A DNA stretch of 64,000 nucleotides from Escherichia coli (GTDB lineage: Bacteria > Pseudomonadota > Gammaproteobacteria > Enterobacterales > Enterobacteriaceae), in assembly GCF_965641715.1 (NCBI RefSeq), contig NZ_OZ282453.1. One strand, written 5' to 3'. A program made the position numbers. This document shows positions 47,501 to 50,500 of the stretch, one piece after another. How positions within the stretch are numbered: the first letter of the stretch is position 1; each line of letters starts with the position of its first letter.

Positions 47501-50500
47501 TTCATTAGCTTCGGTAGTTCGCGTTCGCTGCCCATGTTGTCCATGATGTTAAACACGGCGAACAGGTTCGCGTTGATGGCTGAAGCCGTCGCCAGTAAAG
47601 CGCCGATGACGACGATCACATAACCCACATGCCCGAGCAGCGGAGAAGCAGCCTGCGCTACGGCGGTATCGGCATATTTTTCTAACTCTAATGCCGATAC
47701 ATCGCTAAGCAAAACCAGCGCCAGCGAGATATAAAGCAACGTGGTAACGCCAATCGCCACCAGAAACGCCCGTGGCATAATGACCTGCGGATCTTTCACT
47801 TTATCCGCCGCGTTCGCCATCATGCCAAAGCCCGCATAGGCAAGGAAGGTTATCCCGATACAGGAGAAGAACGCACCGGAGCTGGGGGGCGCAGAGACGG
47901 AAATATGCGCCGGTTGCAGCGACCAGACACCGGCAATAATCAGCAATAACAGGATCATCATTTTAATGCCGACGAGGATCACTTCCAGCCGCCCTACCGC
48001 ATGGTTGCTTAAGGAGTTGAAAAGCGTCATCACCGCAATGATCCCCAACGCATAGAGCAAAATAAGGTGCTCCTCCTGGCTGCCTTCATGCAAAAACTGC
48101 GCGGCATAAGCGCCAAAAGCACGGGCGACCATGGCGATGCTCACCGCCAGCGTCAACAGGTACAGTAACGAGAGCGCCAGCGAAAAGACGCCGTTGCCTA
48201 ATCCGCGACGAAAAAAGTCGATAATACCGCCATTGCTGGGATAGCTCGCCCCCAGGCGCGCATAGGCATAACCGGAAAACATCGCCACAATACCGCCAAA
48301 AGCAAAGGCGACCCAGGTCGAGGCTTCCATTAGCAACGCAGCCTGCCCCAGCAGCGCGAAGATCCCCGCCCCCACCATTGCCCCAATACCGATGGAAACG
48401 ACATTCCATAGACCGAGAGGTTTGTTACCGTTATTACCTTCCGTGTTCATCATGATCAGCCCTTAAACACGTTATAGCCGAGTTGCTTAGCGACCGATGC
48501 CACCATTTTTTGACCGCGAACACTGTTGCCTTCTTCGTCCAGCGGTGGTGAGAACGCGGCAATTCCCATCACGCCAGGGACGACCGCCAGAATACCGCCA
48601 CCTACACCGCTTTTGCCCGGTAAACCAACGCGATACGCCCAGTCACCGGAGCGACCATACAGCCCTTCCATCATCATTTCGGCCAGAATGTACGGCACGT
48701 TGTCGGCCTGAAGAACGCGTTCATGCGTCAGCGGATTCACACCCCCCGCCGCCAGCGTCGCGCCAAGCGTTGCCAGTTCAACAGTATTGATGAGCGTGGA
48801 GCACTGACGGGTGTACACGTCACAGGCTTCCATTGCATCACAATAGAGATATCCGGCGGAGTACAGCAGCCAGGCAATGGCCCGGTTATGGAAGTTGGTT
48901 GTTTGTTCCGACTGGTTGACTTCGTCAGAGAGCGCTACCAGCTCACCAGCCAGTTGCTGTTGGATATGTAAAATTCGCTGCCAGCGTTGTTCGGCATTTT
49001 CAGCGTTAATCAGGCTGGTGGTGGCAATAGCGCCAGCATTTACCAGTGGCGACAGCGGTTTGCCGCCATGCAACTCTAAGGCGATAACTGAGTTAAAGGG
49101 CAATCCGGTCGGGTCAGCGCCAATTTTGTCCTGTACCGCCTGCGGGCCGACATCTTCTAACGCAAGGGCTAACGTACAGACTTTCGAGATGGATTCCAGC
49201 GCAAAGCGGTAATCACTGTCACCCGCACTATAGACGTTGCCATCGCTGGTCACGATAGCCACTGCTGCCAGTTGACCAGGCACATTCGCCAGAAAGGGAA
49301 TGTAATCGGCATTTTGTCCGCCGTTAAGTGAGTGAAATTGGGTGTAAGCCTGATCCACTGCCTGCTGTAATTTGTTTGCATCTAACATCTTTTGTTAACT
49401 CCTTTTTATAGATGCGGGAGGTAATTCCTCACCCCGGTGCCGATTTTCAGGCATCCTGATTTAACTTAGCACCCGCAACTTAACTACAGGAAAACAAAGA
49501 GATAAATGTCTAATCCTGATGCAAATCGAGCCGATTTTTTAATCTTTACGGACTTTTACTCGCCTGGGTTATTAATTTCTTGACCTTCCCCTTGCTGGAA
49601 GGTTTAACCTTTATCACAGCCAGTCAAAACTGTCTTAAAGGAGTGTTTTATGTCACAAACTATCGACCTGACCCTGGACGGCCTGTCCTGCGGTCACTGC
49701 GTTAAACGCGTGAAAGAAAGTCTCGAACAGCGCCCGGATGTGGAACAAGCGGATGTGTCTATCACTGAAGCGCACGTTACCGGGACTGCCAGTGCAGAAC
49801 AGCTGATCGAAACCATCAAACAAGCGGGTTATGACGCATCTGTAAGCCACCCAAAGGCTAAACCGCTGGCGGAGTCATCAATCCCGTCGGAAGCACTGAC
49901 AGCGGTTTCTGAGGCGCTTCCGGCAGCGACCGCCGATGACGATGACAGCCAGCAGTTGCTGCTGAGCGGCATGAGCTGCGCCAGCTGTGTCACCCGCGTA
50001 CAAAATGCGCTGCAAAGCGTACCGGGCGTCACTCAGGCACGGGTAAACCTGGCGGAGCGTACTGCGCTGGTGATGGGCAGTGCCTCCCCACAAGATTTAG
50101 TGCAGGCGGTGGAAAAAGCGGGCTACGGCGCGGAAGCGATTGAAGATGACGCTAAACGCCGCGAGCGCCAGCAAGAAACCGCCGTCGCTACGATGAAGCG
50201 CTTCCGCTGGCAGGCAATTGTTGCACTGGCTGTGGGTATCCCGGTAATGGTCTGGGGGATGATCGGCGATAACATGATGGTCACCGCTGACAACCGCAGC
50301 CTGTGGTTGGTTATCGGCCTGATAACCCTGGCAGTGATGGTTTTCGCCGGCGGCCATTTTTACCGCAGCGCATGGAAAAGCCTGCTGAACGGTGCAGCGA
50401 CGATGGATACACTGGTGGCGCTGGGTACTGGCGTGGCGTGGCTCTATTCGATGAGCGTCAACCTGTGGCCGCAGTGGTTCCCGATGGAAGCGCGGCATCT

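Follow-up and report, generated by a model that had tools for sequence, protein, structure and literature searches.

The stretch of DNA analysed here, referred to throughout as the window, comprises 64,000 nucleotides of Escherichia coli (NCBI RefSeq assembly GCF_965641715.1, contig NZ_OZ282453.1) and includes copA, the gene for a Cu(+)-exporting P1B-type ATPase. Within copA lie a slippery heptamer, an immediate stop codon in the -1 frame and a downstream RNA structure, together called the cassette below, which almost certainly represent the known copA programmed -1 ribosomal frameshift that yields the short copper chaperone CopA(Z). The frameshift site is already published and annotated in databases and is not new. 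The features that bear directly on it are the following, in window coordinates.

49650..52154, plus strand: copA, zero-frame product of 834 aa (open reading frame, NCBIfam, Pfam and RefSeq)
49671..49835, plus strand: HMA metal-binding domain 1, the folded part of CopA(Z) (PF00403, residues 8-62)
49845..49925, plus strand: suppressed synonymous change over codons 66-92, the footprint of the whole cassette (codon alignment)
49850..49856, plus strand: slippery heptamer C_CCA_AAG (sequence, phase and conservation)
49859..49861, plus strand: stop codon TAA of the -1 frame (translation and conservation)
join(49650..49856, 49856..49861), plus strand: recoded coding sequence of CopA(Z) (translation, protein match and the annotation of NC_000913.3)

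The gene carrying the heptamer is, by family score, domain content and neighbourhood, the copA orthologue. Its product scores 1747.7 bits against the NCBIfam equivalog NF007952 (cut-off 1316) and contains two HMA domains, E1-E2_ATPase and Hydrolase by Pfam; the gene order glsA-copA-ybaQ-ybaP is that of K-12, and of 5426 complete E. coli genomes, 5422 carry the RefSeq label copA for it. CCCAAAG occurs once in copA, at 49850-49856, in the X_XXY_YYZ phase (phase 2) of the 834-codon frame, and consists of the last base of codon 67 followed by codons 68 and 69. The zero frame here reads CAC(H67) CCA(P68) AAG(K69) GCU(A70) AAA(K71), while the -1 frame from 49850 reads CCC AAA GGC UAA. An earlier sequence-only reading had recognized the heptamer as a slippery site, its position right after the first metal-binding domain (the Pfam HMA match spans residues 8-62) and the immediate -1 stop, all of which hold. 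Its coordinates do not: 49859-49865 lies 9 nt downstream of the true place and begins with the first base of the -1 TAA, and codons 70-71 were named, two too high, where residue 70 is in fact the glycine of the -1 frame. The bare heptamer is not enriched: the window has 5 of them where 8.65 +/- 3.0 would be expected, and the copA copy is the only one of the five that has slippery phase in a long open reading frame. An E-value scan of 48000-54000 with Rfam found no family at the frameshift site.

Translation through the shift gives a protein, MSQ...SVSHPKG, in which 69 zero-frame codons are followed by GGC (Gly70) and TAA in the -1 frame, that is 70 aa. This predicted product is the same, residue for residue, as YP_009518752.1 / AYC08180.1, described as "soluble Cu(+) chaperone [E. 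coli K-12 MG1655]", and as an isoform that UniProt names "Soluble copper chaperone CopA(Z)"; the view that this is the described CopA(Z) recoding event, conserved in the window, is thus upheld. In NC_000913.3 a second, two-piece copA coding sequence at 511168..511379 corresponds to window 49650..49861, a span of 212 nt. Between gene nucleotides 99 and 330, covering heptamer, stop and downstream structure, the window is identical to K-12, and so is the peptide upstream of the slip site; counted over its full length, 80 of 2505 nt differ from K-12, as do 9 amino acids, all of them outside the cassette. Over the 501 nt that surround the site, the window matches O157:H7 PV15-279 at 100% identity. 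The expectation that annotation based on open reading frames overlooks the small product is borne out by the O157:H7 record annotated by the Prokaryotic Genome Annotation Pipeline (PGAP), in which copA appears at full length only. Of the records compared, NZ_AP018488.1 (L001, O157:H7) has only full-length copA and NC_000913.3 (L089, K-12) has the two-piece CopA(Z) coding sequence as well; the former also carries a frameshifted TolC-family pseudogene beyond ybaT.

CopA(Z) amounts to one HMA domain, complete and bearing the CxxC metal site C14-G-H-C17; PF00403 matches it with 51.7 bits over profile positions 3-62 of 62. Among the structurally solved relatives of this domain are CopZ and Atox-like domains. 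Its scores lie below the cut-offs of the curated NCBIfam CopZ families (NF047957, 60.7 versus 85; NF033794, 39.7 versus 95; NF033795, 38.8 versus 91). By analogy, CopA(Z) would work like CopZ and yet it falls outside the NCBIfam CopZ families.

The species comparison used one genome per species and covers 80 other Enterobacteriaceae loci whose N-terminal 190 aa are 79-98% identical to those of the window; they were recruited with six peptide patterns, of which one spans the site and five do not. At the same offset the heptamer is CCCAAAG in 77/80 of these species and CCCAAAA, still X_XXY_YYZ, in 3/80, and a -1 TAA or TGA stands exactly one codon past it in 81/81 sequences (80 species and the window). 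Residue 70 is only A, S, T or P and always encoded by NCT, and residue 71 only K, N, D or E and always encoded by RAN; the -1 stop (U-RA) is kept because codon choice at these two residues is restricted. Among complete E. coli genomes, 5342/5422 have the 86-nt cassette at 99% identity or more, and 5381/5422 have the 41 nt surrounding the heptamer unchanged.

Synonymous change was assessed on a codon alignment of 78 full-length genes by setting observed differences against a pair- and amino-acid-specific expectation. The constrained zone, 49845-49925, takes in the slip site and about 70 nt downstream. When all 834 codons are scanned in windows of 9, the 23 with the lowest values are all found within codons 62-94, and the observed/expected ratio reaches its minimum, 0.13, at codons 66-74. 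Single-codon ratios are 0.00 at codons 66-68, 70, 72-73, 78-81, 83-85 and 89-91 and near 1 at codons 74, 75, 82, 87 and 93, while codon 69 has a ratio of 0.31, its sole alternative being AAA, which is also slippery. Judged by these patterns of conservation, the heptamer, the -1 stop and the structure of copA are under strong purifying selection.

Downstream of the heptamer, the searches for RNA structure converge on two helices, S1 and S2, arranged as follows.

49860..49868, plus strand: 5' arm of S1, AAACCGCUG, from stem enumeration (-13.7 kcal/mol proxy) and interleaved-stem search, with the core CCGCUG at 49863-68
49869..49885, plus strand: loop L1, synonymously frozen in Enterobacteriaceae and unpaired in the model
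49886..49894, plus strand: 5' arm of S2, GUCGGAAGC, from stem enumeration, interleaved-stem search and RNAalifold
49900..49908, plus strand: 3' arm of S1, CAGCGGUUU, inside the S2 loop, from stem enumeration, interleaved-stem search and pair counts, with the core CAGCGG at 49900-05
49916..49924, plus strand: 3' arm of S2, GCUUCCGGC, from stem enumeration, interleaved-stem search, pair counts and RNAalifold

With 9 bp each, S1 and S2 are the two strongest helices of the region in the stem enumeration, and their arms interleave, so that an H-type pseudoknot results with L1, L2 and L3 of 17, 5 and 7 nt. The spacer between the heptamer and S1 is 6 nt when counted to the conserved core CCGCUG/CAGCGG and 3 nt when counted to its AAA extension, a stimulatory structure being expected some 5-9 nt past a -1 slip site; the AAA/UUU extension pairs only where the 3' arm keeps UUU, namely in Escherichia and in two further loci, L032 and L036, and the core is invariant in 82 aligned sequences. 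The best interleaved stem pair scores -28.9, which was equalled by 1/300 dinucleotide shuffles, and S2 was predicted independently by RNAalifold from the 82 sequences. When the pairs of the full pseudoknot were counted in this alignment, 99.8% of the cells were paired as against 20-54% in slid controls. Changes in S2 are rare, one-sided and pair-preserving (GC<->GU, UG<->CG/UA), and the positions that vary in more than one in ten of the Enterobacteriaceae sequences all lie outside the conserved stems. We propose that the pseudoknot formed by S1 and S2, in this concrete stem assignment, would stimulate the copA frameshift.

The loop L1 is constrained as well. Codons 76-79, which are part of neither stem, have synonymous observed/expected ratios of 0.00-0.09 across the 78 Enterobacteriaceae, the freezing being strongest at UCA UCA AUC CC. 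This constraint could be due to a tertiary contact, to an alternative fold or to some other ligand.

More divergent orthologues were taken from representatives of clusters at 50% identity, a homologue search with full-length CopA having returned only matches of at least 89% identity. Those at issue are listed here by locus, with identity to the window CopA, slip site, -1 stop and structure.

L082, 1001-3742: 67%; C_CCA_AAA; UGA one codon later; S1 and a 6-bp S2 kept, 4/300 shuffles
L083, 372-3071: 60%; C_CCA_AAA; UGA one codon later; same topology with unrelated stems, 0/300 shuffles
L085, 1001-3967, Shewanella fodinae: 47%; C_CCA_AAA; UGA one codon later; weak structure, 13/300 shuffles
L086, 1001-3757, Vibrio tapetis: 49%; U_UUA_AAA; -1 stop after 3 codons; no interleaved stems found
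L084, Salinibius halmophilus, used as a control: 49%; no slip site; none found in the interleaved-stem search
L088, Pontibacterium sp.: 44%; no slip site at the homologous place

The stems of L083 are CUACCGUCA/UGACGGUAG and CCUGAUCCC/GGGAUCAGG, with a spacer of 5-6 nt and L1, L2 and L3 of 18, 1 and 8 nt. These apparently rebuilt stems are, at the level of sequence comparison, the nearest thing to compensatory evidence, and they come from a single lineage. In 12 loci, which encode three other proteins of the 90%-identity cluster of L083 and diverge by about 3.5% in nucleotide sequence, the 90-nt cassette shows one change, too few to bear on the stems, and this lies in L1; L1 of the Enterobacteriaceae is conserved in neither L082 nor L083. 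In L082 and L083 the cassette comes after the second of three HMA domains, in L085 after the third of four, and the predicted -1 products accordingly have 140 aa with two HMA domains (L082), 145 aa with two (L083) and 213 aa with three (L085). The U_UUA_AAA of Vibrio tapetis is in phase, at codons 140-141 (...SSHLKSG...). An in-phase CCCAAAG in a further locus, L087, was judged to be chance, as it sits inside an HMA domain and its -1 stop comes later.

It is conceivable, although we consider it distinctly less probable than its opposite, that two statements hold jointly: that the cassette is an old movable module of the Gammaproteobacteria rather than an enterobacterial peculiarity, and that L1 marks a tertiary contact or a ligand that tunes efficiency. 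The module would comprise the heptamer, a stop in the -1 frame after one further codon and, some 5-6 nt downstream, a pseudoknot, and this reading, if true, would predict soluble chaperones that hold two or three metal-binding domains. The multi-domain positions of the cassette in distant Gammaproteobacteria and the constraint on L1 are possibly the only new items in the present analysis.

Some points limit the support for the known frameshift and this pseudoknot in the window, although none contradicts them. Nested minimum free energy folding downstream of the heptamer is not significant (z = -1.0 for 84 nt, z = -0.7 for 151 nt), as is to be expected of a program that cannot represent pseudoknots; nested folding is uninformative here, and the search for interleaved stems with shuffles took its place. 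In the 82 aligned sequences, which are based on the Enterobacteriaceae, no double-sided covariation was found, and because the stems hardly vary, the support for them within this family is conservation and not compensation. The experimental support comes from K-12, which is another strain, its cassette being identical to that of the window in sequence.

The alternative that survives best, though we regard it as improbable, is that the conserved downstream RNA serves mainly another purpose, such as the formation of a short, chaperone-only copA transcript or the binding of a trans-acting factor, with its effect on frameshifting secondary. The synonymous freezing of L1 (49869-85), which the pseudoknot model leaves unpaired, speaks for such a purpose, and the title of Drees 2017 ("differential transcript formation"), as cited in PMC7558416, names a second route to the chaperone. 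Against it, the terminator scan found no intrinsic terminator on the plus strand in 49400-50400, the constraint starts exactly at the heptamer and includes the -1 stop, and both the spacer and the interleaved topology recur with a different sequence at the slip site of L083 and are absent from L084, which has no slip site. A further purpose of this kind would also be compatible with a programmed frameshift and does not exclude it.

Far less credit can be given to the notion that the heptamer arose by chance, from the need to encode His-Pro-Lys, and has no recoding function here, which we consider practically negligible. The lack of over-representation of CCCAAAG in the window would be in keeping with chance, but the absence of synonymous change at codons 67 and 68, the restriction of codon 69 to slippery alternatives, the codon choice at residues 70 and 71 that preserves the -1 stop throughout and the identity of the cassette to the experimentally proven one of K-12 are not. 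Conservation of heptamer and stop together with the synonymous constraint effectively refutes it. Transcriptional slippage, in which the short product would come from gain or loss of a base by RNA polymerase and not from the ribosome, is equally close to nil, as no point in its favour was found, the homopolymer runs are just C3 and A3, far below the run of about 7-9 A/T that productive slippage needs in bacteria, and a downstream pseudoknot at a precise spacing is a hallmark of -1 frameshifting by the ribosome.

The programmed ribosomal frameshift may be pictured as follows. A fraction of the ribosomes translating copA would pause when codon 68 (CCA) is occupied by tRNA-Pro and codon 69 (AAG) by tRNA-Lys, and both tRNAs would slip back by one base, from CCA to CCC in the P-site and from AAG to AAA in the A-site. 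The single tRNA-Lys of E. coli makes N_NNA_AAG sites prone to shifting, as in dnaX. The shifted ribosome would then read GGC and stop at UAA (49859-61), releasing the 70-aa CopA(Z), in which the first HMA domain would act as a free cytosolic Cu(I) chaperone, while ribosomes that do not slip would make the 834-aa pump. The pseudoknot, 3-6 nt past the heptamer, would stimulate the slip by resisting unwinding at the mRNA entrance.

The copA frameshift was reportedly shown in K-12 by Meydan et al. (2017, Mol Cell 65:207), and Drees et al. (2017, Mol Microbiol 106:635) are likewise said to have described the K-12 copA/CopA(Z) frameshift. In the literature the E. coli event is treated as established (PMC9548414, PMC7558416, PMC5009743, PMC10861913): ribosome profiling supports it well, with independent confirmation by Drees 2017 (PMC9548414), and the 70-aa product has been reported (PMC5009743). 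The slippery sequence, a pseudoknot in the mRNA and CopA's nascent chain are named as stimulators (PMC7558416, citing Meydan 2017), and -1 frameshifting is reported to be stimulated, in a single-molecule assay, by the copA pseudoknot and by S1 and S2 variants of it (PMC6182138). According to the literature, CopA(Z) binds Cu(I) and passes it on to CopA (PMC7558416, PMC6771820), and a role in protection from copper is likewise ascribed to it. Nothing that contradicts the frameshift explanation was met.

To our knowledge the chromosomal genes of E. coli include just three in which a programmed frameshift is well documented: copA, prfB and dnaX. In dnaX the heptamer is A_AAA_AAG, accompanied by an internal Shine-Dalgarno sequence upstream and a simple stem-loop downstream. 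Unlike dnaX, copA has C_CCA_AAG, a downstream pseudoknot and, according to PMC7558416, a contribution of the nascent chain. The two genes are alike in being chromosomal -1 frameshifts outside mobile elements, with an X_XXA_AAG-type heptamer read by a single tRNA-Lys (PMC10861913, PMC6771820), and in that the -1 frame stops almost immediately, which yields a truncated but functional version of the whole protein. The closest counterpart is K-12 copA/CopA(Z) itself, which shares gene, heptamer, -1 stop and 70-aa product with the window and lies at the same locus in a different E. coli strain. Genes of the CopZ/Atox1 type, such as copZ of Enterococcus hirae and Bacillus subtilis, likewise encode a single HMA domain of about 70 aa with CxxC that serves a CopA-type pump (PMC7558416); unlike these stand-alone proteins, CopA(Z) is the pump's own first domain, freed by recoding and not encoded by a separate gene. 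For human ATP7B, the orthologous copper pump, a -1 frameshift was claimed in the same 2017 paper as for copA, and this claim, supported neither by ribosome profiling nor by conservation, was shown to be a reporter artefact (PMC9548414). The bacterial copA site, unlike that of ATP7B, shows extreme synonymous conservation.

Around the cassette, the copA locus holds further elements, of which one concerns the regulation of the gene.

49580..49610, plus strand: copA promoter and putative operator of CueR (MerR-type), from sequence reading and dyad search

The -35 element TTGACC (49580-85) and the -10 element TAACCT (49605-10) are separated by a spacer of 19 bp, and a standard promoter scan, which admits spacers of 16-18 bp, returned no match for the copA promoter. 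The promoter spacer contains the dyad ACCTTCC-N7-GGAAGGT (49583-49603), identical in K-12, which we take, from what is established about the copA promoter, to be the CueR operator. In the 5' leader of copA an imperfect inverted repeat at 49608-49641 (CCTTTATCACAG / CTGTCTTAAAGG, 83% complementary) overlaps the Shine-Dalgarno sequence AAAGGAG with its 3' arm and could hide the ribosome-binding site. Right after the copA stop codon, at 52211-52549, there are 3.4 tandem copies (97% matches) of a 101-nt unit of the repetitive extragenic palindrome/bacterial interspersed mosaic element (REP/BIME) type, each of which exceeds the gathering score of the Rfam family naRNA4 (RF02564). The small RNA sroB (RF00368) lies at 53843-53926 on the minus strand, adjoining the end of ybaP, and scores 82 bits where the gathering score is 44.

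The comparative data provide an independent confirmation of the copA frameshift from sequence only and leave the published picture unchanged. For annotation, they underline that automatic pipelines miss the second product of copA, of which the curated K-12 record has both coding sequences. For the biology of E. coli, the frameshift explains how a copper chaperone is available in an organism without a copZ gene.

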